From the NCBI GenBank assembly GCA_958295745.1, contig OY282370.1, positions 1,162,311-1,226,310 of the forward strand: a DNA stretch of 64,000 nt. The letters run 5' to 3'. A program made the translations under genes and the position numbers. Of the stretch, positions 8,435 to 57,280 are shown one piece after another. Origin of the DNA: an uncultured Acidimicrobiia bacterium (GTDB lineage: Bacteria; Actinomycetota; Acidimicrobiia; Spongiisociales; Spongiisociaceae). How positions within the stretch are numbered: the first letter of the stretch is position 1; the number at the start of each line of letters is the position of its first letter. The notes beneath the pieces were generated by a model. That model worked only from the letters and a program-made list of their open reading frames with translations, did no database searches and had not been told where the DNA came from.

Positions 8435-9289
8435 CTATCTATCTGCGGCCCGGGCGGCGGCCAGCTTCAGGGCCCTCACGGTGAGCACTCCGGCCACCCG
8501 GCGGCGGTATTCCTTGGTGCCCCGCTTGTCGTCGATGGGGTTGCAGGCGGCCTCGGACGCCGCCGCCGCCTTTGCCAGCACTTCCTCGGTGAGCGCCCGC
8601 CCCGCCAGGGCTTCTTCTGCGTCCGGGACCCTGACCACGGTGGGCGCCACCGCCCCGAGGGCCACGGCGGCGGCGGTGCACCGCCCGGAGTCGTCCAGCG
8701 ACAGGCGCACCCCCGCCCCTACTACGGCGATGTCCATCTCGGTCCGGGGTATGAACCTCAGGTATGCGTCGGAGGTCCGGGCGGGCGGACGGTCGAACTC
8801 GAACTCGACCACGAACTCCCCTTCGGCCAGGGAGGTCTGTCCCGGTCCGGTGACCACCGAAGCCACCGGAACGGTCCTCATCCCGCCGGGGCCGGCGATC
8901 ACCGCCCGGCCTTCGTCGACCACCATGGCCGGAACGCTGTCGGCCGCAGGGGAGGCGTTGCACAGGTTTCCCCCCAGGCTGGCCCGGCTCTGGATCTGGT
9001 CCGACCCGATCAGGGCGGCGGACTCCACCAACCCGGGAAGCTCGGCGGCCAGCTGTTCTTCTTCGGTGAGGCGCACCGCCGGGACGGCCGCCCCGATCAC
9101 CCAGGTATCCCCTTCCAGGCGCAGGTCGACGAGCCGATCTATCCGCTTGAGATCGACCGCCTGTTCCGGCTTGGGACGGCCCATCTGCAGCTGCGGGAGG
9201 AAGTCCGTGGCGCCCGCGTAGGCCTGCGCCGCGCCGCCGGCCAGGATGGAGACGGCTTCTTCAACGGAGGCGGGGGCGATGTACTTCAT
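8435..9289 (-). CDS. Xanthine dehydrogenase/CoxM-family FAD-binding medium subunit
   Basis: AGATD, IQSRASLGGNLCNASPAAD, PIDDKRGTKEYR; start assigned to MKYIAP at 9289. Confidence 0.93.
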   Translation of the reverse strand: MKYIAPASVEEAVSILAGGAAQAYAGATDFLPQLQMGRPKPEQAVDLKRIDRLVDLRLEGDTWVIGAAVPAVRLTEEEQLAAELPGLVESAALIGSDQIQSRASLGGNLCNASPAADSVPAMVVDEGRAVIAGPGGMRTVPVASVVTGPGQTSLAEGEFVVEFEFDRPPARTSDAYLRFIPRTEMDIAVVGAGVRLSLDDSGRCTAAAVALGAVAPTVVRVPDAEEALAGRALTEEVLAKAAAASEAACNPIDDKRGTKEYRRRVAGVLTVRALKLAAARAADR

Positions 9290-9407
9290 GGGGCGACGTA
9301 CTTCATGGGGCAACCGGATTCATACCGTATATATACACGATGCTGCGGACCATGGTCGGCAAGTCTACACCTCGACGGCGGCCCAAGGGTTCAAGGAGCT
9401 GTCCGCT

Positions 9408-10955
9408 TTATGACGGCCCGCGGCCGCCTTCGATCAGGGCCGCGGCGTGCTCGGCCAGCGCAACGGTGGGAAGATGGGTGTTGGCCCTCGGCGCCTGCGA
9501 CATGATGGAGGCGTCCACCACCCGCAGCCCCTCGATCCCCAGAACCCGGCACTGCGGATCCACCACTGTCTCCGCCTGATCGGCAGGCCCCATCCGGCAG
9601 CTGCCGGAGGCGTGCTGAGCGTCGAGGCACGAGCGCATCAGCCAGTCGTCGAGGTCGGCGTCCTCGATCCCCGGATCGACGTCGAGCCGCTCGGGGCCGA
9701 GCCATACCGCCGAGGCGATCCCCCGGATCGGACCGGACCCGGCCAGCTCCATCAGACGCCTCGCCCCGGCCCGCAGGCGCGCCAGGTCATCAGGATGGGA
9801 CAGCATCCGGAAGTCCACCCGGGGTTGGGCGTCCGGATCGGGGCCGGTGATGGCGACCTCGCCCCGGGATGCGCTCTCGAACACGCACATCTCCAGCAGT
9901 CCGGTCTCGAAGCCCTCGCCGCCGTAACCGCTCAGGTTCATGGAAAGGAGCAGCATGTCGTTGGGCACATCCCCCGCCGCCCCCGAGCCGTACCGGACGC
10001 AGCAGTTGGTGTGGCGGTCGTCGGGCGACCGGGCCCTGGCGTGTTCCCGCAGGCCGAGCATCAACCAGACGGCCGGGTGCTCCTGCAGCCCCCGGCCCGC
10101 CGGCAGGTCGGCCGCCACCTCGATGCCGAGGGGCGACAGCAGCTCGGCGGGGCCGACGCCCGAGCGCTGCAGGATGGCGGGGCTGTGGATTGCCCCCGCG
10201 CACAGGATCACCTCCCCTCCCCCGATATCTCTGGCCTCCCCGTCCAACCGGACCGATACTCCTGCGGCCCGGCCGCCGGACAGCAGCACCCGGTCCACCC
10301 TGGCCCCTCCGCGAACGGTGAGGTTGGGGCGGCGGCGGGCCGGCTCGATATAGGCGTCGTTGGTGGTTACCCGGCGGCCGCCCCGGCTGTTGACGGCGTA
10401 GGGCGACACGCCGGTGGACCCCGGAGCGTTGTGGTCGTCGTGCCAGGGGTGGCCCGCCGCCAAGGCCGCGTCCCGAAGCGCCGAGTCGACCGCCCCCCAT
10501 TCCTCCTGGGGTGTTCGGTGCACCGGGATGGGGCCGGAGTCCCCGTGATAAGGGGCTTCCCCGAAGTCGAGGTCGGTCTCCATGCGGAGGACGGCGGGCC
10601 AGATGTCGGCGCTCGACCATCCCGGCGCCACCCAGCGGTCGTAGTCCTCCGGCATGGCCTGGATGGCTATCTGGCCGTTGATGGCGGAGCTGCCCCCCAC
10701 CCCCCGGCCCCTCCAGTAGAGGGACGGTTCCTGCACCTGGGTCCGCCGGACCAGCAAGCCGGGCCAGTGATAGTCCGGGTCGGAGATGATCCGAGAGGGG
10801 TTGGGGCTGCGGATATGCCAAGGCGTGTCGGCGGAGCGATAGTCGAGCCCCGCTTCTAGAAGCAGAACCCGGCGGGCCGGGTCCTCGCTCAGCCGGGCCG
10901 CTACCACGGCGCCCGCCGATCCGGCCCCCACCACGATCGTGTCGTATCCGCCCAT
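9408..10955 (-). CDS. GMC-family FAD oxidoreductase (choline/alcohol dehydrogenase-like)
   Basis: VGAGSAGAV, GRGVGGSSAIN, HASGSCRMG, LRVVDASIM, NTH. Confidence 0.93.
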   Translation of the reverse strand: MGGYDTIVVGAGSAGAVVAARLSEDPARRVLLLEAGLDYRSADTPWHIRSPNPSRIISDPDYHWPGLLVRRTQVQEPSLYWRGRGVGGSSAINGQIAIQAMPEDYDRWVAPGWSSADIWPAVLRMETDLDFGEAPYHGDSGPIPVHRTPQEEWGAVDSALRDAALAAGHPWHDDHNAPGSTGVSPYAVNSRGGRRVTTNDAYIEPARRRPNLTVRGGARVDRVLLSGGRAAGVSVRLDGEARDIGGGEVILCAGAIHSPAILQRSGVGPAELLSPLGIEVAADLPAGRGLQEHPAVWLMLGLREHARARSPDDRHTNCCVRYGSGAAGDVPNDMLLLSMNLSGYGGEGFETGLLEMCVFESASRGEVAITGPDPDAQPRVDFRMLSHPDDLARLRAGARRLMELAGSGPIRGIASAVWLGPERLDVDPGIEDADLDDWLMRSCLDAQHASGSCRMGPADQAETVVDPQCRVLGIEGLRVVDASIMSQAPRANTHLPTVALAEHAAALIEGGRGPS

Positions 10956-11188
10956 GCCCCCAAAACTCTATCGTCATTATCGATGGATATTCCGCCGCAC
11001 TGAGCCGTTCCGACCGAATTACATCGTTGTAGCTGTTGTTTTGTTCTTTAAAATCGGCCTGGCCTCAACAATTTCAATCCTCTCTTAGACGCAACTCCGG
11101 CTTGGACGGGGGGCGGTCGAGGCGGCACAGACGACTCCGCCACTCCAGACGGTTCACACAGACCCTCTGGCAAAGTAGAGGCTTCATC

Positions 11189-11211
11189 AAAATTAGTGAT
11201 ACCATAATTTT
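11189..11211. promoter_or_regulatory. Inverted repeat AAAATTA-N9-TAATTTT overlapping the -10 box (CATAAT, 11203-11208) of the leaderless fic gene
   Basis: Seen directly in the sequence; the ATG lies 7 nt after the hexamer with no SD. Confidence 0.55.
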
Positions 11212-11215
11212 GACT

Positions 11216-12235
11216 ATGAACGAACAAATAGACCCTTCACCGAGAACAGGACGCCCCGCCTACCGCGAGGTCTACCAGAGGCTCGCCGTCCAGATCAGGG
11301 AGCTCCAGGACCACTTGGGCGGCCTCCCCAGCCCGGAGGAGGCGGCCGACATCTGGAACGACATCTGTATCCAGGAGGCCCACCACTCCACGGCCATCGA
11401 GGGCAACACCCTGGTACTGCAGGAGGTGGAGCAGCTGCTCGAAAGGGGTCTGGCGGTGGGCAACCGGGAGCTGCGCGAATACCTGGAGGTCAAGGGGTAC
11501 GCCGATGCGGCGCGCTGGGTGTACGAACAATCGGCCGGCCCTTCGGAATGGTCGAACGCCGACCGCCTCCTGACCCTGGCCGACGTGCGCATGGTCCACC
11601 ACAAGGCGATGAGGCCGGTGTGGGAGGCGGCGCCCCACCCGTTCGCTGCGGAACGCGAGGCGCCGGGCGCCTTCCGCGAGCACGAGATACGACCATTCCA
11701 GGGCGGGATGACCCCCGTCACCTGGCCGCTCATCCCTGCGGAGACGGCGGCTTGGGTGACCGACGCCGACTCGCTCGACCCGGACAGCCCGAACTTCCTC
11801 GAACAGCTGGCCGCCCTGCATTGCCGCTTCGAGCAGATACACCCCTTCATCGATGGCAACGGGCGGGCCGGACGGCTGGTGCTCAACCTGATTCTCGTCC
11901 GGCTCGGCTACCCGCCCGCCGTCATCTACAAGCGGGACCGGGACCGGTACCTGCGGGCGCTCCGGCGGGCCGACGCCGGCGACCCGGGCATGCTGGGCGA
12001 TCTGCTGGCCCGAGCGGTACTGGACAACCTGCACCGCTACGTGATCCCGGCCGTAGCGGGCCCGGCCCGGATGGTCCCGCTCTCCGCCCTCGCCTCCCCG
12101 GACCTGAAGATCCCCGCCCTGCGGGCCGCCGCCGCCCGCGGCCGCCTGAAGGCGACCCGGGGCCCCGACGGGCAGTGGCGCAGCTCCCGGCAATGGGTCG
12201 AGGAGTACCGCACCGGCCGGTGGCGCCGCAGCTGA
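11216..12235 (+). CDS. Fic/DOC family protein with a C-terminal HTH-like tail
   Basis: HPFIDGNGRAGR catalytic motif; internal STAIEGN inhibitory-helix motif; C-terminal PLSALA...RGRLKA...GQWRSS resembles an excisionase/HTH_17 fold. Confidence 0.92.
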   Translation: MNEQIDPSPRTGRPAYREVYQRLAVQIRELQDHLGGLPSPEEAADIWNDICIQEAHHSTAIEGNTLVLQEVEQLLERGLAVGNRELREYLEVKGYADAARWVYEQSAGPSEWSNADRLLTLADVRMVHHKAMRPVWEAAPHPFAAEREAPGAFREHEIRPFQGGMTPVTWPLIPAETAAWVTDADSLDPDSPNFLEQLAALHCRFEQIHPFIDGNGRAGRLVLNLILVRLGYPPAVIYKRDRDRYLRALRRADAGDPGMLGDLLARAVLDNLHRYVIPAVAGPARMVPLSALASPDLKIPALRAAAARGRLKATRGPDGQWRSSRQWVEEYRTGRWRRS

Positions 12236-12357
12236 GCCCCGCCGACTGCTCCGGCGGCGATGATCCGCACCGACGACTAGGCTGCCCCTCCACCGGAGGC
12301 ACGCGGCCTTCAGACCATCAGCCGCCGGTACCGCGGCCCCCGGAGGGGCAGCGGGCG

Positions 12358-12576
12358 GAAAACTAAAGCAAAACCCCCCCACACCCCACAACTTTACTTT
12401 TACGAAGAAGAAAACTAAAGCAAAACCCCCCCACACCCCACAACTTTACTTTTACGAAGAAGAAAACTAAAGCAAAACCCCCCCACACCCCACAACTTTA
12501 CTTTTACGAAGAAGAAAACTAAAGCAAAACCCCCCCACACCCCACAACTTTACTTTTACGAACAGGAAAACTAAAG
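12358..12576. repeat. 52-bp direct tandem repeat, 4 copies plus an 11-bp partial copy; AT-rich and strongly strand-asymmetric
   Basis: Unit gaaaactaaagcaaaacccccccacaccccacaactttacttttacgaagaa starts at 12358, 12410, 12462 and 12514, with the partial at 12566. Confidence 0.97.
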
Positions 12577-12577
12577 T
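12549..12577 (+). promoter_or_regulatory. Putative sigma70/SigA promoter TTTACT-N17-TAAAGT for a leaderless transcript of 12585-14336
   Basis: -35 at 12549-12554, -10 at 12572-12577, ATG 7 nt downstream. Confidence 0.6.
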
Positions 12578-12584
12578 TTCTCTC

Positions 12585-14336
12585 ATGGAGGCACCCCCCT
12601 TCAAGTTTTTCGACCCGCCCTCTCCTGATGCCGAAGCAAGGCGCGTGATCACCGCCTTGGCTGCCGGAGATTACGACCCGGAGCTGCTCGAGTCGGCTTC
12701 CGTCGACCTCAAGGAGGAGGCCGGACGGCGCTCGAACGGCGTAGTCCTTCCCGGTTCACCCCAGAACAACCGCGTCGCCCGCCCACTCGCCGAGGCGGCG
12801 GCCTGCATGGCCAACACCGAAGGCGGCGGTGTTCTGATCGTGGGAGTCGACGGACGAACCGGCGCGATCATCGGCGCCGACACCGACACCGACTGGCTGC
12901 GGACCCGCATCTACCAGCTGACCGACCGGCGGCTCACGGTCAACATTCGCGTCGCCGAGGTCAGAGGCAAACGGTTGCTGGTCATCTCCGTCCCCCAAGC
13001 CGTGGAACCGGTGCCCTTCCACGGCAAATATCGGCGCCGGCAAGGAAAAAACTGTGTGGAGGTCACGAGCACGGAGCTCCTCCAAGGGATATTCGCCGGA
13101 ATGGCAGCCGATCCCTCCTATCAACGCTCGACGGCGACCGTCGGCGCTATCTCCCCGGGAACCGAGACGGCCCTCAGGGGTCGGCTCACCCCGATCGACC
13201 CCGGCAAGGCCGCCCTCCCCCTGAGGGACTTGATCCTGCGCCTCGGGCTTGTCTTCGAGGACACCGAATACCTCAACGAAGCAGGCCGGATTTTGCTCTC
13301 CGCCGACAGCGGGCCCTCCCTCGACTACACCTATCGTGAGGTGCCCGGCGGCCCGTCGAGCGTCCGTATATACGAGTCCGGCCTCTCCCTGCTAGAAGAG
13401 ATCGTCCTCGTCGATGCGACGGCCCTTCGCAACAATCCCTTAACAGAGATAACCAACGGCTTCGAGGTGCGGCGTGTGCACGCCATCCCGCAACGGTCGT
13501 TGCGTGAAGCCATCCTCAACGGGGTTTGCCACCGTGAGTGGACCGACCCGGCGCCGACCGTCGTGGAGCACATCGGCTATGAGCTCCGTGTCACGTCCCC
13601 CGGCGGCCTCATGCGGGGCATCACGACCGACAACATCATCACCCATCCCTCCGTTCCCAGGTATCGCACCCTCATGAACGCCGTTCGCCAACTGGGTCTG
13701 GTCGAGCAGCAAGGGGTGGGGGTGGACATGATGTTCGCCGACCTGATCAGGATAGGGAGCACACCTCCCCTCATCGAGGTCACCGATGATCCGTCCGTTC
13801 GGGTCATCCTCTCCGGGCGGCGGCCCGACGAGGACCGATACCACTTCTTTCTCGATCTGCGGCCGCGAGGGGCCTTCAACGACGTCGACGCCGCCCTCGT
13901 CGTATGGCGCGCCTCCAACCCTGATACGCCTTTTCTGACCGCAGACTCGTGCGCCCCTCTCCTGCAACGAAGCCCAGAGGACGCTGAAACGGCCCTCCGC
14001 CGCCTCGCCGAATACAAACTGGGCGGGGTTCATGGTCTGCTGACTCCCATGACCACGCCGGACGGCGCCCCGCCCGCATGGGTGCTGAGCCAGGCCGCTC
14101 GCGAAGCCCTCCGGATCAGGCCGTCCCGCGAATCGTCCATCCATGCCTTGGCCTGGCTGCGGGAACGCGGCAGGATCTCCTCGACGGAATACTGTGAGAT
14201 AACGGGCTTCTCCCATGCCACCGCCATCGCCCACCTCAAGGCCTTGGCCGAAGCCGGGCACATGGAACCCAGCTCGCCGAGCGGACGGGGGCGCGGTTTC
14301 CACTACCTCCTGCCCGACAACCTCCGGGACCCATGA
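12585..14336 (+). CDS. AlbA_2/Schlafen-like N-terminal domain + HATPase_c_4-like (RecG-C-type) domain + C-terminal winged HTH
   Basis: SVDLKE...ACMANTEGGGVLIVGVD (AlbA_2); LREAILNGVCHREW...VTSPGG...P.YRTLMNAVRQLGLVEQQGVGVDMM (HATPase_c_4-like); GRISSTEYCEITG...RGRGFHY (wHTH). Confidence 0.85.
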   Translation: MEAPPFKFFDPPSPDAEARRVITALAAGDYDPELLESASVDLKEEAGRRSNGVVLPGSPQNNRVARPLAEAAACMANTEGGGVLIVGVDGRTGAIIGADTDTDWLRTRIYQLTDRRLTVNIRVAEVRGKRLLVISVPQAVEPVPFHGKYRRRQGKNCVEVTSTELLQGIFAGMAADPSYQRSTATVGAISPGTETALRGRLTPIDPGKAALPLRDLILRLGLVFEDTEYLNEAGRILLSADSGPSLDYTYREVPGGPSSVRIYESGLSLLEEIVLVDATALRNNPLTEITNGFEVRRVHAIPQRSLREAILNGVCHREWTDPAPTVVEHIGYELRVTSPGGLMRGITTDNIITHPSVPRYRTLMNAVRQLGLVEQQGVGVDMMFADLIRIGSTPPLIEVTDDPSVRVILSGRRPDEDRYHFFLDLRPRGAFNDVDAALVVWRASNPDTPFLTADSCAPLLQRSPEDAETALRRLAEYKLGGVHGLLTPMTTPDGAPPAWVLSQAAREALRIRPSRESSIHALAWLRERGRISSTEYCEITGFSHATAIAHLKALAEAGHMEPSSPSGRGRGFHYLLPDNLRDP

Positions 14337-44085: not shown

Positions 44086-44172
44086 CGGTTGCCGCCTATC
44101 CTGAACTCACCGCGCCGCCTACCACACCGCAGTGCCCGGCAACACCTGGACCCACCCGCCCAAGGACAAACA

Positions 44173-45654
44173 ATGACCACCTGCACGACATGGCGCCCCA
44201 TCGAGCCGCCCGACCCGGCAACGGCGGAAAGGCTCAGAGGCGATTTGGCCGCTGTCGATGCCCTGCACCGGTCGTGGAAGGAGTTCGCCGCCTCCCTGGA
44301 CGAGGCCGACCGCCATACCCTCCGCCGCCGCACCCTTCGCAAGCACGCCATAGAAACCGGCATCATCGAGCACCTATACGACATCGACCCGGGGGTTACC
44401 GAAATGCTGGTGGCCGAAGGGCTGACCAGGGAAGCCGTCGCCCGAGCGGGCGGGGAGCTGTCTCCGGGAGTCCTGCCCATGCTCGAAGCCCAGATGGAAG
44501 GGCTGGAGATGGTCACCGAATACGTGCGGGAAGGGTTTCCCTTGACCACCTCCTTCATAAAGGAGATCCACGCCCTGATCGCCCGGGCCCAGCCCTACTA
44601 CGAAGCCACCGATTCCTTGAGGCGGCCCATCAGGGCAAAACTGAACCACGGCAGCTTCAAGACCCTCCCCAACAACGTGAAACTATCCGACGGGTCTCTC
44701 TTGGAATTCGCCCCGCCCGAGCAGGTGGACGGGGAGATAGAACGCTTGGTGGATTGGTACAACCGGATGAGTGATGTCCATCCGGTGATCTCCGCCGCAT
44801 GGCTGCACCACCGGTTCGTGCAGATCCATCCCTTCCAGGACGGCAACGGGAGGGTGGCCAGGGCTCTGACCCTCCTCTCGTTCGGAAGGGCGAAATATCC
44901 GCCGCTGGTGGTAGACCGGGATAGCCGAGATCGGTACTTGCAGGCCTTGAACCAAGCCAACGGCGGCGATTTGACCCCCCTAGGCCGGCTCTTCGTCAAA
45001 TTGGCCATGCGGTCTATACGCCGTGAGCTGGAAGTTCCGGTCCCCGGCCCCCTGCCCCAGACCGCCCGGGAAGTCGCCCGATACCACGCGCGAAAGCTGA
45101 GGTTCCAGGACCAGGAAAGAACAGAGCAGAGAGAACGCGCCGTCCATATACGGGCCCGGCAGATCCACGGACAAATCGGCGACTGGTTCCAAAATGTCGG
45201 CACCGACCTGAAGAGTGTTTATGCCGAACAAGGCCGAACGGTCCAGCAATGGACCGATCAGATCGACCCCGATCACGAACGGGCCAAGTGGTGGCGCCGT
45301 CAGATCATCCGGTCGGCCAAGAAAGCCGAGCACTACGCCGACCTTTCCTCCGACACCTGGTGGACAGCCTTGAGTTTGACTATCAACGGACTTCAATTGC
45401 GGTTCGTTGCCTCCATCCATCATGTGGGAAGCCCCCGCACCGGTGTCATGGCCGTAACCACCTGCGGGGTAATCCGACATCTCACGCAAGAGGACGGGCC
45501 TCCCGAGACGACCGACGTGGATACTTCCTGGGACGCCTTCACTTTCTCCCACGACGAGGAGGTAGAGGATCGGGCCGGCGAACTGAACGATTGGCTGGAC
45601 CATTCGCTGGCGGCGGCCTTTCAAGAACTGAGCCGCCTTACGCTAAGAGCGTGA
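44173..45654 (+). CDS. Fic family protein with a long C-terminal domain
   Basis: AIETGIIE, QIHPFQDGNGRVAR. Confidence 0.92.
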   Translation: MTTCTTWRPIEPPDPATAERLRGDLAAVDALHRSWKEFAASLDEADRHTLRRRTLRKHAIETGIIEHLYDIDPGVTEMLVAEGLTREAVARAGGELSPGVLPMLEAQMEGLEMVTEYVREGFPLTTSFIKEIHALIARAQPYYEATDSLRRPIRAKLNHGSFKTLPNNVKLSDGSLLEFAPPEQVDGEIERLVDWYNRMSDVHPVISAAWLHHRFVQIHPFQDGNGRVARALTLLSFGRAKYPPLVVDRDSRDRYLQALNQANGGDLTPLGRLFVKLAMRSIRRELEVPVPGPLPQTAREVARYHARKLRFQDQERTEQRERAVHIRARQIHGQIGDWFQNVGTDLKSVYAEQGRTVQQWTDQIDPDHERAKWWRRQIIRSAKKAEHYADLSSDTWWTALSLTINGLQLRFVASIHHVGSPRTGVMAVTTCGVIRHLTQEDGPPETTDVDTSWDAFTFSHDEEVEDRAGELNDWLDHSLAAAFQELSRLTLRA

Positions 45655-45790
45655 GCGGATAGGTGTTAGTTGGTAGGGCTCCAGCGGTTTCGCCAGTTGA
45701 TGAGTTTGATGGTGATGATCAGGGTGATGGCTAGCCGGTGTTGGGGGCGGCGGTCGGTGTTGGGGGCGTAGTTGCCCGTAGTTCGACAGC
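45647..45790 (-). mobile_element. IS5-family remnant (transposase 3' end plus probable terminal repeat)
   Basis: Frameshifted translation LSNYGQLR.NTDRRPQHRLAITLIITIKLINWRNRWSPTN*, recalled as an actinobacterial IS5 C-terminus; probable end gagcgtgagcggatagg preceded by TAA. Confidence 0.6.
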
Positions 45791-46020
45791 CGGTGGACGA
45801 CCGATTCACTGAGTGGGCGGAAGCGGTGGGAGTACCGGTCGGTTCGGTTACCGATGAGGACACCAAGCAGGATCTCATCTGCGAGCTGGACGCCTGTGTG
45901 GCTCATCTCTACGACCTCGACGAGGACGACTTGGCTGTCATATACGAAACATTCCACGAAAGGACCGACTACTCTGAGCACCACGCGGCGGTGCTCGAAC
46001 ACTTTGGGAGAACTGAATGA
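45790..46020 (+). pseudogene. C-terminal fragment of an Eco57I-like/type IIG DNA methylase
   Basis: DDRFTEWAEAVGV...LICELDACVAHLYDL...IYETFH matches the recalled extreme C-terminus of large methylases partnered with PLD-SNF2 helicases; no N-terminus is present. Confidence 0.65.
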
Positions 46021-46319
46021 TCGAAAACCGAATACGTATTGGAGGCACTTCAGAGATAGAAAAACTATCTTGGAAACAGCGAGCAAAACATTATCTAGAT
46101 GGTTATCCTCAATATAAGGAGAAGTATAAGCTAGAAAAAATTAGTATAATTAAGAGATGGGTGAGCTATGCGCTTCGTAACGGACTAAACCCAGGATATC
46201 GCAACGAAAGGGCTATTGAGAATTTTCTGAGCTATAAATCGTATTCAGACAGCACTCTTAAAAGTTATCATCGCCATTTCTGTGAATGGTTCGATCATTG
46301 TGAGCGATCCGGCTGGTGA
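46017..46319 (+). CDS. Small low-GC hypothetical protein, possibly an integrase core-binding (SAM-like) domain
   Basis: ATGA-coupled to the upstream fragment; IENFLSYKSYSDSTLKSY...WFDH resembles the integrase N-terminal helical motif. Confidence 0.45.
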   Translation: MIENRIRIGGTSEIEKLSWKQRAKHYLDGYPQYKEKYKLEKISIIKRWVSYALRNGLNPGYRNERAIENFLSYKSYSDSTLKSYHRHFCEWFDHCERSGW

Positions 46320-46490
46320 GCCAGCTGTCTGAACTTTGTGTGTTATACCTCCTCGTATAGTGTCCGGTAAACTAGGCTGATGGAAAGGACAGCTTGAAGG
46401 ATGGGCGGAACTGCGGGCTTTCTGAGCGAGCGGGACCCCGGTATTTGGTACCCGCCGAAGGATTTTGCCCATTCACTGAGGCCTGCCCAG

Positions 46491-47876
46491 ATGTTTACCC
46501 AGGATGCCCCGAACGGCTTGGAGGTGGTCCTGGCCGAGGCCGACGGCCGGCCGTCCGATGCCGATATGCGCCGGTCATGGTCAGCGCGCCGGGCGGGGCG
46601 GGTCTCTCCGGTGCTGTTGGCGGTTTTCTTTTCCACCCTTGATGGAGTGCGGGTGTCTCTGTGCGGACCGACCGACCCTCAGCCCGCGTACCACGCCATC
46701 GAAGTATCACGGGTCGAACGGTTGGTCAGGGCGGCGTTGGATCAGCCCAGCCATCATGCGGCCACCCGATTCCTGCAAACGGCCCTCCCCGAACTGGGAA
46801 CCTCGGTACCTGGACTCCGCCACATCGGGCTGATGGCCGCCGGAATCCTCACAGATGAAGTTCCCAAGATGACCGAGTGGCCGGCGGCGGTCGGGCGGGC
46901 CGCGCCATTGCTGATGACGAGGGATCGCACACTCTTCGAGCGGTTGGGGTACTGCATAGAAGACCTGGGCGCCAACACCAGGATGCTCACCATCGAAGGC
47001 CGTAGACGGGCTGTGGCCGTGTTCTGCAACGAGGACGAGCTGTTCGACGCTCCGGCCGTGCGGTTCGGAGGCGCAACCCCGGCGTCATTTGCCTTGACGG
47101 TCGCCGACGCGCAAGAGGTCGATTGGGCGATCCTCACCCGCACTTCGGAAATCCGCCTCTGCGCTGCACGGAGCGGCGTCGGTATGGATCGCGAGCAACG
47201 GGGCAAGGCCTTCGTAGAATTGAACCTGGCCTTGCTGTCCCCTGAACAGGCCGGTTACCTGGACCTGCTGTTCTCGGCGGACGCCCTCACGGACCACGGA
47301 ACGCTGGAGAAGATACTGGACAGATCGAACAGGTTTGCCGCTGTACGGACTCAGGAGGGTCCCATGACCGAAAACCAAGGACAAATCGGGTGCATCGAGG
47401 GGGAGACCATCATGCTGGAGCGGCGATCCGATGGCATCGCGTTGGCCGTAGGCGAAGTAGAAGTCAGACTGTCTACAGGGGGTGTGGGCCGCCTGGTCGA
47501 CTGGCTGTCTTCCTACCTCGACCAGCCGGACGACTCCCCGGTGATTCCCTCCGATGACCCGCCACCGGAGAAAGAACCCGGGCACCGGAAGAAGCCCGAA
47601 AGACATCACTACAAGGTCCCCGACCTGATAGCGGCCGGCCTTTTGGATGTCGGAACGGTTCTCATCTTGACCTATAACGACAGAGAGCATTACGCCGCGG
47701 TCGCCGCGGATGGACAGATCGAAGTGGCCGGGCAGTCTTTCAGTGCGCCTTCCGGAGCCTGTAGACACGTGACCGGCTGGTCGACCTGTAATGGATGGAA
47801 GGCATGGAAGGATCCCGAGGGGCGTACTCTGGCGGAGCTCCGCAACCAGCTGAGAGAGATGCGGTCGGATGGGTGA
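46491..47876 (+). CDS. Chimeric ORF: N-terminal third of a type IIG methylase protein fused in frame to a RAMA-domain protein
   Basis: The N-part (VERLVRAALDQP..HAATRFL...YLDLLFSADAL...SNRFA) stops before any methylase motif. An internal AGGAGG + ATG lies at 47364. The C-terminal DLIAAGLL...APSGA...CNGWKAW...TLAELR is RAMA-like. Confidence 0.7.
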   Translation: MFTQDAPNGLEVVLAEADGRPSDADMRRSWSARRAGRVSPVLLAVFFSTLDGVRVSLCGPTDPQPAYHAIEVSRVERLVRAALDQPSHHAATRFLQTALPELGTSVPGLRHIGLMAAGILTDEVPKMTEWPAAVGRAAPLLMTRDRTLFERLGYCIEDLGANTRMLTIEGRRRAVAVFCNEDELFDAPAVRFGGATPASFALTVADAQEVDWAILTRTSEIRLCAARSGVGMDREQRGKAFVELNLALLSPEQAGYLDLLFSADALTDHGTLEKILDRSNRFAAVRTQEGPMTENQGQIGCIEGETIMLERRSDGIALAVGEVEVRLSTGGVGRLVDWLSSYLDQPDDSPVIPSDDPPPEKEPGHRKKPERHHYKVPDLIAAGLLDVGTVLILTYNDREHYAAVAADGQIEVAGQSFSAPSGACRHVTGWSTCNGWKAWKDPEGRTLAELRNQLREMRSDG

Positions 47877-48456
47877 ACCGCCTCCAAACCAGGCCGTCGA
47901 GCCGAAGCCAGAGCTGGCTGTCAACCGGGGCGGGCGGACGGTGGCCGACTCGCTCAACGGGTTCATCGCCCATGCGGCCGCCGATTTCGTCGGGGGCGCC
48001 CGTCTCGACATCGCCACCGCCTACTTCAACGTGGGCGGCTATTCGCTGCTGGCCGACTCGCTCGATCATGTCACCGGCGCCCGGATCCTGCTGGGTGCGG
48101 CGCCTGCCCCGCCCGAGAAACGCCGGCGTGCGCTGGGTTCGGAGTCGGTCGTTCCGGAGCGGGCGGCCCGGGAACGTATGCGCCGGGCGATGGAAAACCA
48201 CGAGCGCGATCTCACCGCCGACCGGGACCTGATCGGGTTCTCGGCGGAAGCGGACGAGAACGCCCGGCGGCTGGTCGGCTGGCTCCGATCGGGGAAGGTG
48301 GAGGTGCGCCGTCTGGAGGGGCGTTTCCTGCACGACTTTGACAAACTAGGGCAACGTGATATAATTTATTACCTGGGCTGTGAGTCGCTTTGGGTCACCG
48401 AGGTGCATCGGTCTAGCCCGGTCGGGGCTCGCTTTGGCGGGCCCCGACTTCTATAA
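47869..48456 (+). pseudogene. Truncated N-terminal PLD domain of a PLD-SNF2 helicase
   Basis: LDIATAYFNVGGY...RILLG...VEVRR...FLH, then homology and GC content break at about 48335 where HxK is expected; no helicase motifs. Confidence 0.72.
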
Positions 48457-48459
48457 GGA

Positions 48460-49248
48460 TTACCTTAGAGGCCAAGGTTGCCTCCAGGTTTTTAGTTGAC
48501 TAGCCACATAGTTGTGCATTAACTGTTTCACAACGGTGTCCCATTTATTATTACTAAGGTTCCTTTGAATTATTTGGTTGCGATTAATAATGTATGCAAC
48601 CAGATCAGCCAGTTGAATGCCCCTGTTTCGTTCCGACTTGTCAAAGTATATCCTATCAACAAAGTGATCAAGGGTGATGTTGATCCCGTATGTAGTTCCT
48701 ATAGGTCCACCCAGTTCCAGCATCTCATTCATCAGATCAATGGAATACTGCTCCTGTTCATGATTCTCATCCGCCACGAGAAGAATTCGCCTGCTTAGAC
48801 TATCCTCTTGGACATTAGGCTGTGTGATCCATTTTTCTAACTTTTCGATAAGAAACTGAAGTGCAAATAGATGAGGATTTGGATCGCTATAGTTCCTGTG
48901 AGCCAATGCTTCTTTGTAGATTGACGCGTAAGCAACGCCCGCCTCTACTTGGCTTAAAACAGATAAGGCTTTAGAGTACTCATCAATTCGTTGGCGAGGA
49001 CATACATTCTTCCATTCGCCCCGACCACCAAAAAGGTCGCTACCGCGGTACTCTGTCAAGGGGTTAGTCGTTGGTGCTTGGGAAGCGAGTTCATTGAGTC
49101 GTGAGTTCATCTCCCGTATTCGATCTTCTCTTACCATTACTGCAGCGATCAGATGAAAAGGCTGGTCAGGATCATCAAGCCGACGGCCGGTGTTTCCTGA
49201 TTCGTCAAGATAGCATATCAGAATTTGGTATCCTTTCCATATTGCCAT
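48460..49248 (-). CDS. DUF3800 domain protein (RNase H-like fold), low GC
   Basis: CYLDESGNTG N-terminal motif and GIQLADLVAY C-terminal motif. Confidence 0.8.
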   Translation of the reverse strand: MAIWKGYQILICYLDESGNTGRRLDDPDQPFHLIAAVMVREDRIREMNSRLNELASQAPTTNPLTEYRGSDLFGGRGEWKNVCPRQRIDEYSKALSVLSQVEAGVAYASIYKEALAHRNYSDPNPHLFALQFLIEKLEKWITQPNVQEDSLSRRILLVADENHEQEQYSIDLMNEMLELGGPIGTTYGINITLDHFVDRIYFDKSERNRGIQLADLVAYIINRNQIIQRNLSNNKWDTVVKQLMHNYVASQLKTWRQPWPLR

Positions 49249-49282: not shown

Positions 49283-50222
49283 CCTGAATCCACCGGTGTG
49301 GTGGCGGTTGGGGGTGGAAATGTTAGGAAGTGCCTTTCTGACCTGGGATGATAGCCGTAGTCTGGCGAGGTCCTAGGAGCCCGCCTGCGCGGGGGCTTCA
49401 CGGCGGGGGAACACCCATTTCGTTGCTGAGGCCGTTCGCCGGGCCCGCCAGGCCGGGGCCTGTGGTTCTGTTGTGGTGCGGGCCGATGCGGGTTCTGGTC
49501 CTACGGTTTGATCGAGGCGTTGGACCGTCTGGGGGCCGGCTGGTCGATAACCGTTCCGCTCCGCTCCCATGTCCGGGCTGCTGTCGAAGCGATCCCGGAG
49601 TCTCGGACTGTACCTCTATTGATTATCCCGAAGGCGGAGAAGCCCAGGTAGTCGAGACGGCCATCACCTCATCCGCCCGCCACGGCAACCCTCGGATACG
49701 CATAGTCGTACGCAGAACCCGACTGATTAGTAGCCAAGCCGAGCTATGGCCCAATTGGCGATTCCACCCCTTCGCCACCAACACCGCACAACCCCCTGCC
49801 GAAGCTGACCTCTACCACCGCCGCCACGCCAAAGTAGAGCTCGCCATCCGCGACCTCAAAGAAGCCTCCGGCCTCGCTCATCTCCCATCAGGGACTTCTT
49901 CGCCAACGCCGCCTGGCTGGCCTGCGCGGTGCTCGCCCACAACCTCTACCGGTGGATCAACCACAGCGGCCGCAACATTCTCCGCCTGCCCGCCCGATGG
50001 CCCTGGGCCACCCAATACCAAACCACCCTACGGAACCTCCGCCGCCTACCCCAGCTCAGCTGACCCCCCCTTCGACACGCGGTACCCCCCCGCCTGAACC
50101 CCACACGCCCAAACCACCCCTCGCCATCCAGCATCCACCACCCCGGCTCCACCAACCACTAAAACCACCACTAGGCCACCACCCCAAACCACCCCACCAC
50201 CAAACGAATCGGTGGATTCAGG
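49283..50222 (+). mobile_element. Internally deleted IS1380-family element (940 bp)
   Basis: Perfect 13-bp terminal inverted repeats cctgaatccaccg (49283-49295) / cggtggattcagg (50210-50222); flanks tttag/tttaa form an imperfect TSD. Confidence 0.8.
49373..49975 (+). pseudogene. Frameshifted 3' half of an IS1380-family DDE transposase
   Basis: Pieces VVVRADAG(F), HAKVELAIRDLK and NAAWLACAVLAHNLYRW lie in different frames. Confidence 0.8.
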
Positions 50223-57179: not shown

Positions 57180-57223
57180 CCTCGAAGGATACCGGTCGGC
57201 CGCATCCGACCCGGGACCTTTTG

Positions 57224-57280
57224 CCTGGATCCACCGGTGGGGGGTTGGGGGTGGAAAGGTCGGGAGGTGCCCCTCTGACC
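57224..57280 (+). mobile_element. Isolated left-end remnant of an IS1380-family element
   Basis: cctggatccaccggtgg...gggggtggaaa...ggtgcc..ctgacc aligns with 49283-49345. Confidence 0.7.

Follow-up and report, generated by a model that had tools for sequence, protein, structure and literature searches.

A probable collinear remnant of a methylase/HKD-SNF2 helicase defence operon in an uncultured Acidimicrobiia bacterium

The subject of this analysis is a window of 64,000 nt from an uncultured Acidimicrobiia bacterium (contig OY282370.1; coordinates are those of the window unless a related locus is named), within which positions 45791-48334 were compared with related loci. Judged from its sequence, this segment is very probably an eroded, collinear remnant of a multi-gene restriction-modification-like defence operon of sponge-associated Actinomycetota. 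Both operon ends, the methylase and the helicase, are wrecked, and the 491-amino-acid (aa) gene between them is intact; the locus has undergone unremarkable gene decay within a defence island, in surroundings rich in mobile DNA. An earlier note on this DNA had described the wreck of a type IIG-like methylase/PLD-SNF2 helicase system whose pieces stand in reversed or permuted order. The first part of that description is upheld, and the second fails, as five relatives are collinear with the window.

The relatives compared were L001, L002 and L003/L004, the contexts of three homologues, together with two named genomes, L005 (Ca. Spongiisociaceae) and L006 (Ca. Poriferisodalaceae), both Actinomycetota. 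By blastn and tblastn, homologous segments stand in the same order and on the same strand in all five relatives and in the window, with homology to the relatives starting at 45791-45793 and stopping at 48333-48334. These are the breakpoints that the earlier note had proposed to map by tblastn of its fragments against intact loci. The pieces it listed were all recovered where it had placed them, on the + strand and with matches far above chance in the open reading frame (ORF) listing and the profile scans. Its observation that both catalytic cores are gone was likewise borne out: with the proteins of intact relatives as tblastn queries against the 64-kb window, no N6-adenine methyltransferase catalytic domain and no other methylase or helicase piece was found.

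At the 5′ end, positions 45793..46020 (+) comprise the last 73 codons and the stop of the methylase C-terminal (small-subunit) ORF. The 82-aa ORF to which they belong (45772-46020) matches positions 1300-1369 of the 1378-position PADLOC profile PDLC03620 (type IIG; E 9.9e-15), and its annotated start, 45772, falls within a repeated element described below. The aligned part (45793-46011) shares 85-90% aa identity with the ends of the L002 251-aa, L003 130-aa and L001 123-aa ORFs, and corresponds to the C-terminus of the unsplit 1350-1360-aa methylases.

At the 3′ end, positions 47869..48333 (+) hold the first 155 codons of an HKD(PLD)-SNF2 helicase-nuclease gene, identified by tblastn, whose ORF continues in foreign sequence to 48456. 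They match residues 1-155 of 1115-1118-aa HKD-SNF2 helicases at 69-95% identity (E 1e-52 to 1e-75), the tblastn value being 94.8% for L001 and 69% for L002/L003; the profile scans gave no match for the ORF at 47869-48456. The last helicase residue before the break is the His of the HxK motif: the window reads ...RRLEGRFLH and then passes straight into DFDK (FLH joined to DFDK), where relatives read FLHGKAFLVSD. Intact relatives continue past the cut with FLHGKAFLVSDRSHGVVAGSSNF; because their sequence after ...RRLEGRFLH is GKAFLVSDRSHGVVAGSSNF, the cut lies within the HKD motif. The complete motif, HxK(x)4D(x)6GSxN, is absent from the window ORF, which keeps the His alone, and the SNF2 ATPase and Helicase_C domains are absent as well, residues 1-155 of about 1117 being present.

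Organisation of the operon in relatives

In the relatives, the operon runs on one strand in the order large methylase ORF, small methylase ORF, 240-aa RAMA protein, 155-aa protein, a gene joining an N-terminal domain (N-domain) to RAMA, and HKD-SNF2 helicase; the exception is L006, which is without the accessory genes and consists of methylase, small ORF and helicase. The large methylase ORF (1143-1255 aa; positions ~50-1090 of PDLC03620) comprises the N-domain and an Eco57I-type N6-adenine methylase, and in L001 is broken into 950-, 119- and 123-aa ORFs. What the earlier note listed as the "methylase C-terminus" is the end of a separate small ORF, which in relatives has 251-297 aa (profile positions ~1100-1371; just 130 aa in L003) and follows the large one. 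The methylases of the relatives match Pfam Eco57I (1.8e-13) and PDLC03620 (3e-205). The N-domain + RAMA protein has about 450-600 aa, and the helicase (1115-1159 aa) has "C3a139 HKD+Snf2" as its top PADLOC match, matches DrmD too, and carries SNF2-rel_dom and Helicase_C (Pfam). The order given in the earlier note, helicase followed by methylase, exists in other bacteria, PLD-SNF helicase genes having been recorded both upstream and downstream of type II restriction-modification genes (PMC9881135, Table 3), and is not the order of the relatives considered here.

Two further features of the relatives were observed. The methylase is split at one profile position (~1090-1130 of 1378) into overlapping large and small ORFs in L002 (4397-8709), L005 (4250-8780) and L006 (9944-14135), and other members of the methylase family are unsplit, single proteins of 1350-1360 aa; the split across divergent loci would reflect either a two-subunit form that has been conserved or programmed frameshifting. 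In L001, the locus of the 94%-identical relative, a tandem duplication of about 980 bp (10905-12921) covers the RAMA end of the N-domain + RAMA gene and the first 140 helicase codons, yielding extra 159-aa and 172-aa ORFs ahead of the intact helicase; L005 contains additional RAMA ORFs and a truncated helicase start. The accessory RAMA and N-domain genes are apparently an undescribed elaboration of the known methylase/HKD-SNF2 pairing, and the intact operon family is a mildly novel variant.

The surviving accessory genes

The intact gene at 46401..47876 (+) encodes a 491-aa accessory protein with the N-domain at aa 1-315, a linker "IGCIEG...RLS" at about aa 325-372, and RAMA at aa 390-487. It matches PDLC03620 positions 47-321 (E 3.3e-33), and its RAMA domain (PF18755) scores 73.9 bits vs a cut-off of 35.2, which passes the Pfam gathering threshold. 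What had been listed as two pieces, a "methylase N-terminus" and a "RAMA gene", is a single ORF, intact and conserved. In a search of 5.8 billion proteins, P0001 was 94% identical and of equal length, and P0002-P0009, all with RAMA, shared about 53% identity over 95-100% of the length. Mean column identity in the family alignment is 61%, and the window copy holds every invariant residue. An exhaustive HMMER search returned three 50%-identity clusters spanning the full length of the protein, and over 100 clusters of methylases (1130-1400 aa) whose match is confined to the N-domain (residues ~6-315). In a maximum-likelihood tree of the N-domain, all N-domain + RAMA proteins fall into a single clade (100/100) that lies within the methylase N-domains from loci of this type, which points to one old duplication; the signature residues are SEIRLC in the N-domain + RAMA proteins vs SEIRLY in the methylases. 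As read from this tree, the N-domain arose once, by an old duplication of the methylase N-terminus, and is not a fresh chimera. The position of the gene between methylase and HKD-SNF2 helicase is the same in L001-L005.

Structure comparison agreed with the assignment of the C-terminal part, which Foldseek matched to MPND (7ydw/7ydt) and to the CcrM C-terminal domain (6pbd). The N-domain model reached a mean predicted local distance difference test (pLDDT) score of 59.5 from 10 sequences and of 89.9 from a 39-sequence alignment. The latter model has no confident neighbour in PDB, with weak matches to Hjc, RecU and splicing endonuclease at a probability of at most 0.5, and no D...ExK motif of the PD-(D/E)xK endonucleases is evident in the N-domain alignment. 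The presence of the N-domain in both methylase and reader suggests a common docking role.

Between the methylase remnant and this gene lies a 100-aa ORF of low G+C content (GC) at 46017..46319 (+), recognised by its similarity to the tail of the 155-aa ORF as a "tail" module of the operon's small accessory proteins. It is 53.5% identical to residues 63-155 of the L002/L003 155-aa ORF (53-60% across relatives; aligned 46020-46316) and 39% identical to the tail of the 240-aa RAMA protein. Its start overlaps the upstream stop (ATGA), as in relatives, and its GC is 0.39 vs 0.42 in the orthologous ORFs; by its identity to the relatives' ORF, its position and its low GC, the ORF is native to the operon. 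The small ORFs of relatives are modular, built from an "IGCIDG...RLS" module, RAMA and the tail "RWV.YAL..G.NPG". The 100-aa ORF retains the common start MIENRIRIG and the tail, and is without the "IGCIDG...RLS" module and the RAMA domain; the 240-aa RAMA gene is missing from the window operon. With the 240-aa RAMA gene and half of the 155-aa gene missing, a 100-aa in-frame ORF is left.

The conservation of the 491-aa gene raises the question of whether the remnant is a working minimal module, in which an orphan N-domain + RAMA protein acts with the 100-aa protein, for example as a reader of N6-methyladenine (m6A) in DNA that regulates or blocks. Synonymous divergence (dS) and the ratio of nonsynonymous to synonymous divergence (omega), both computed against L001, are 0.083 and 0.40 for this gene (omega 0.23 in the N-domain). 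These omega values favour such a module, as do the full length of the gene with all its family-invariant residues and the retention of signals for translational coupling (ATGA at 46017, and the overlap at 47869-47876 of the helicase start with the stop of the 491-aa gene). Divergence from L001 is nevertheless small (dS 0.08), the dead helicase fragment has a similar omega of 0.28 (dS 0.11), so that the low omega may predate the decay, and relatives carry the gene only inside the full operon. We therefore regard a working module as unlikely; the reader gene that remains has probably become an orphan only recently, left over from the decayed operon.

Junctions, read support and history of the locus

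Upstream of the operon and outside it lies a gene for a 521-aa Fic-domain protein (44089..45654, +; Pfam Fic 1.6e-20, PADLOC SoFic 1.1e-22). In L006, a different Fic gene (8660-9850; SoFic 2.6e-102) stands directly upstream of the methylase. Fic was considered as a conserved partner of the system and rejected, the window and L006 proteins sharing 27% identity over the Fic core only. The 5′ junction is formed by the truncated end of a repeated element, probably an insertion sequence (IS), at 45644..45790, whose other copies diverge outside these limits. Its outer end, 45644, faces the Fic gene, and its interior is cut at 45790/45791 and fused to the methylase remnant; in four read runs (X1-X4), other contigs carry 45644-45791 and differ before 45644 and after 45791. 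The element encodes a 44-aa minus-strand peptide without a Pfam match, and its assignment to IS5 was not confirmed. In the simplest history of this side, the element would have inserted between the Fic gene and the methylase, and a single deletion from the element interior into the small methylase ORF would then have left only the last 73 methylase codons.

On the 3′ side, foreign DNA stands in place of the helicase body. It begins with a 113-bp promoter/hairpin element (48337..48449, +) that is 78% identical to L005 11970-12080. The element has a perfect sigma-70 consensus promoter with an extended -10 (TTGACA-16-TG-TATAAT at 48338-48365; scan 12/12), followed by two stable hairpins that recur in L005, with RNA fold z-scores of -4.9 in the window and -4.2 in L005. 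In L005 it likewise follows a truncated helicase start, which is a different and shorter 5′ fragment. It matches no Rfam family, and an exact 20-mer had 0 matches in JGI metagenome contigs; a small-RNA gene, a promoter cassette and a site of recombination are all possible identities for it. Next comes an intact gene for a 262-aa DUF3800 protein (48460..49248, -; Pfam DUF3800 4.3e-21) with a GC of 0.44 vs about 0.65 in the flanks, and adjoining it a fragment of an IS1380-family transposase (49348..50097, +; NCBIfam transpos_IS1380 7.1e-09, profile positions 273-354 of 419), with a related 67-bp end at 57218-57280. As comparison with relatives shows, the helicase was severed after codon 155, inside the HKD motif, and fused to the 113-bp element, the DUF3800 gene and the IS1380 fragment.

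In the earlier note, the order of the pieces was attributed to a circular intermediate, to tandem integrations with deletions, or to recombinational shuffling, which would have reversed or circularly permuted them. At first sight the profile matches agree, as the methylase C-terminal match (1300-1369) lies upstream of the N-terminal match (47-321) on the same strand; relatives also have local tandem duplications, such as the ~980-bp one in L001, and the locus is mosaic. The order of the window, from methylase C-terminus through the N-domain + RAMA gene to the helicase, is nonetheless the native order of intact relatives: L001, L002, L003/L004, L005 and L006 all have the methylase first and the helicase last on one strand, which removes the reason for invoking circular intermediates or tandem integrations. 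The C-terminus appears to precede the N-terminus because the N-domain match sits in a separate conserved gene, a paralogue of the methylase N-terminus, whose family has a single origin and its own SEIRLC signature. Nor do the unitigs contain joints at meaningful depth that hint at another arrangement, and a permuted locus is accordingly very improbable. Programmed inversion with silent cassettes, an idea taken from PMC9881135, was also rejected, all repeats here being direct and on the same strand.

The assembly was checked against runs X1-X4, all from one sample and possibly the assembly's own data, which makes them less than fully independent evidence; they contained 89-94% of the stretch's words. 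A unitig crosses the 5′ junction (45676-45916) with zero differences, and an error-free unitig crosses the 3′ junction (48294-48412) at depths of 21.7/13.1/20.8/14.7 in X1-X4, vs 19.8/13.5/18.9/13.5 in the flank. Mis-assembly, which the earlier note had named as grounds for abandoning its interpretation, is contradicted by these unitigs spanning both junctions in four runs. The read graph forks at 48334, and the other branch, with an intact HKD motif, equals L001 12922-12951 exactly (depths 13.8/11.5/24.1/19.9). Relative to the window branch, the intact branch has depths of 0.70, 0.85, 1.28 and 1.47 across the runs, a range of about two-fold, and depth is not raised in the Fic flank. This places the intact, L001-type locus elsewhere, its carrier probably being a second organism of the same sample, so that a related organism or replicon with a working system would coexist with this one. 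A chimeric contig, joining this genome to that related intact locus, might have been suggested by the near-identical helicase 5′ region running into an intact HKD motif and by the loose end at 48334; it can be dismissed as extremely improbable, given error-free unitigs over both junctions at the depth of the flanking genome and a branch ratio whose variation among runs points to two separate populations.

Divergence from L001 jumps within the remnant: dS is 0.84 over 45793-46011 (the methylase fragment, omega 0.06) vs 0.08-0.11 over 46133-48334. The upstream piece and the rest accordingly have different histories, and the jump indicates a recombination boundary near 46040-46130.

Several points weigh against the simple picture of a collinear remnant eroded in place. 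The locus is a mosaic, reshaped by recombination between related loci, though its order is unchanged. A second, intact copy is possible elsewhere in the genome, the search for the cores having covered the 64-kb window. The direction of the internal differences, deletion in the window vs insertion in the relatives, is read from only four or five loci, and the mechanism set out below for the intact system is one predicted from domain content alone.

Relation to known systems and meaning

The closest known systems are pairs of a type IIG-like methylase and a PLD(HKD)-SNF2 helicase (PDLC03620 REase_MTase_IIG with the candidate "C3a139 HKD+Snf2"; Milman et al. 2023, PMC9881135, Table 3). As in such pairs, the two genes are neighbours on one strand in intact relatives, and the window retains the methylase 3′ end and the helicase 5′ end. 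Unlike them, this clade has a methylase split into a large and a small ORF, with up to four RAMA/accessory genes between methylase and helicase, and the window copy has lost both catalytic genes to destruction at the two ends. Class 1 DISARM (DrmA, DrmB, DrmC, DrmD, DrmMI) is similar in that the relatives' methylase matches DrmMI (5e-65), their helicase matches DrmD (9e-44), and a PLD nuclease domain is present; it differs in that PLD is here fused to the SNF2 helicase and does not form a separate DrmC, and in that the extra genes are RAMA genes. An assignment to class 1 DISARM was rejected, as neither DrmA nor DrmB (DUF1998) occurs in the window or the relative loci. Type-2 BREX-related (BR) systems (Rakesh & Krishnan 2026, PMC12839542) share an effector with an HKD endonuclease N-terminal to a Swi2/Snf2 helicase, and self-marking by an N6-methylase. 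BR systems centre on a DUF499 ATPase and also contain DUF3780 (PMC12839542); this class was rejected too, the relatives' gene lists containing neither DUF499 nor DUF3780 and the methylase family being a different one. The C-terminal ~100 aa of the 491-aa protein are clearly a RAMA domain by sequence and predicted fold (PF18755; Iyer, Zhang & Aravind 2016, PMC4738411; as in MPND and the CcrM C-terminal domain). The difference lies in the fusion partner, which in this protein is a duplicated copy of the methylase N-domain, with neither a methylase nor any recognised nuclease attached.

RAMA domains have been predicted to discriminate m6A (PMC4738411). When the system is complete, its methylase would mark self DNA with m6A, the RAMA proteins would read the methylation state, the shared N-domain would link methylase or reader to the helicase-nuclease, and the HKD-SNF2 helicase-nuclease would translocate on and cut unmarked DNA. 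Going by its gene content, the system in the window would be able neither to methylate nor to cut DNA in this genome. A bolder proposal, which we consider doubtful, is that the intact family is an undescribed methylation-reading restriction system in which the N-domain reader competes with or replaces the methylase on the helicase-nuclease; that the 113-bp element, found at helicase 5′ breakpoints in two lineages, is a small-RNA gene or a recombination site driving cassette exchange; and that the reader in the window is still used.

For this site, neither a permuted locus nor a circular intermediate is needed. The case also carries a caution for annotation, namely that a methylase N-terminus match downstream of a C-terminus match may be a genuine separate gene. 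What emerges is an operon family in sponge-symbiont Actinomycetota in which a duplicated methylase N-domain is fused to an m6A-reader (RAMA) domain, and this family provides a way to test how the methylase, the reader and the HKD-SNF2 nuclease-motor communicate with one another.

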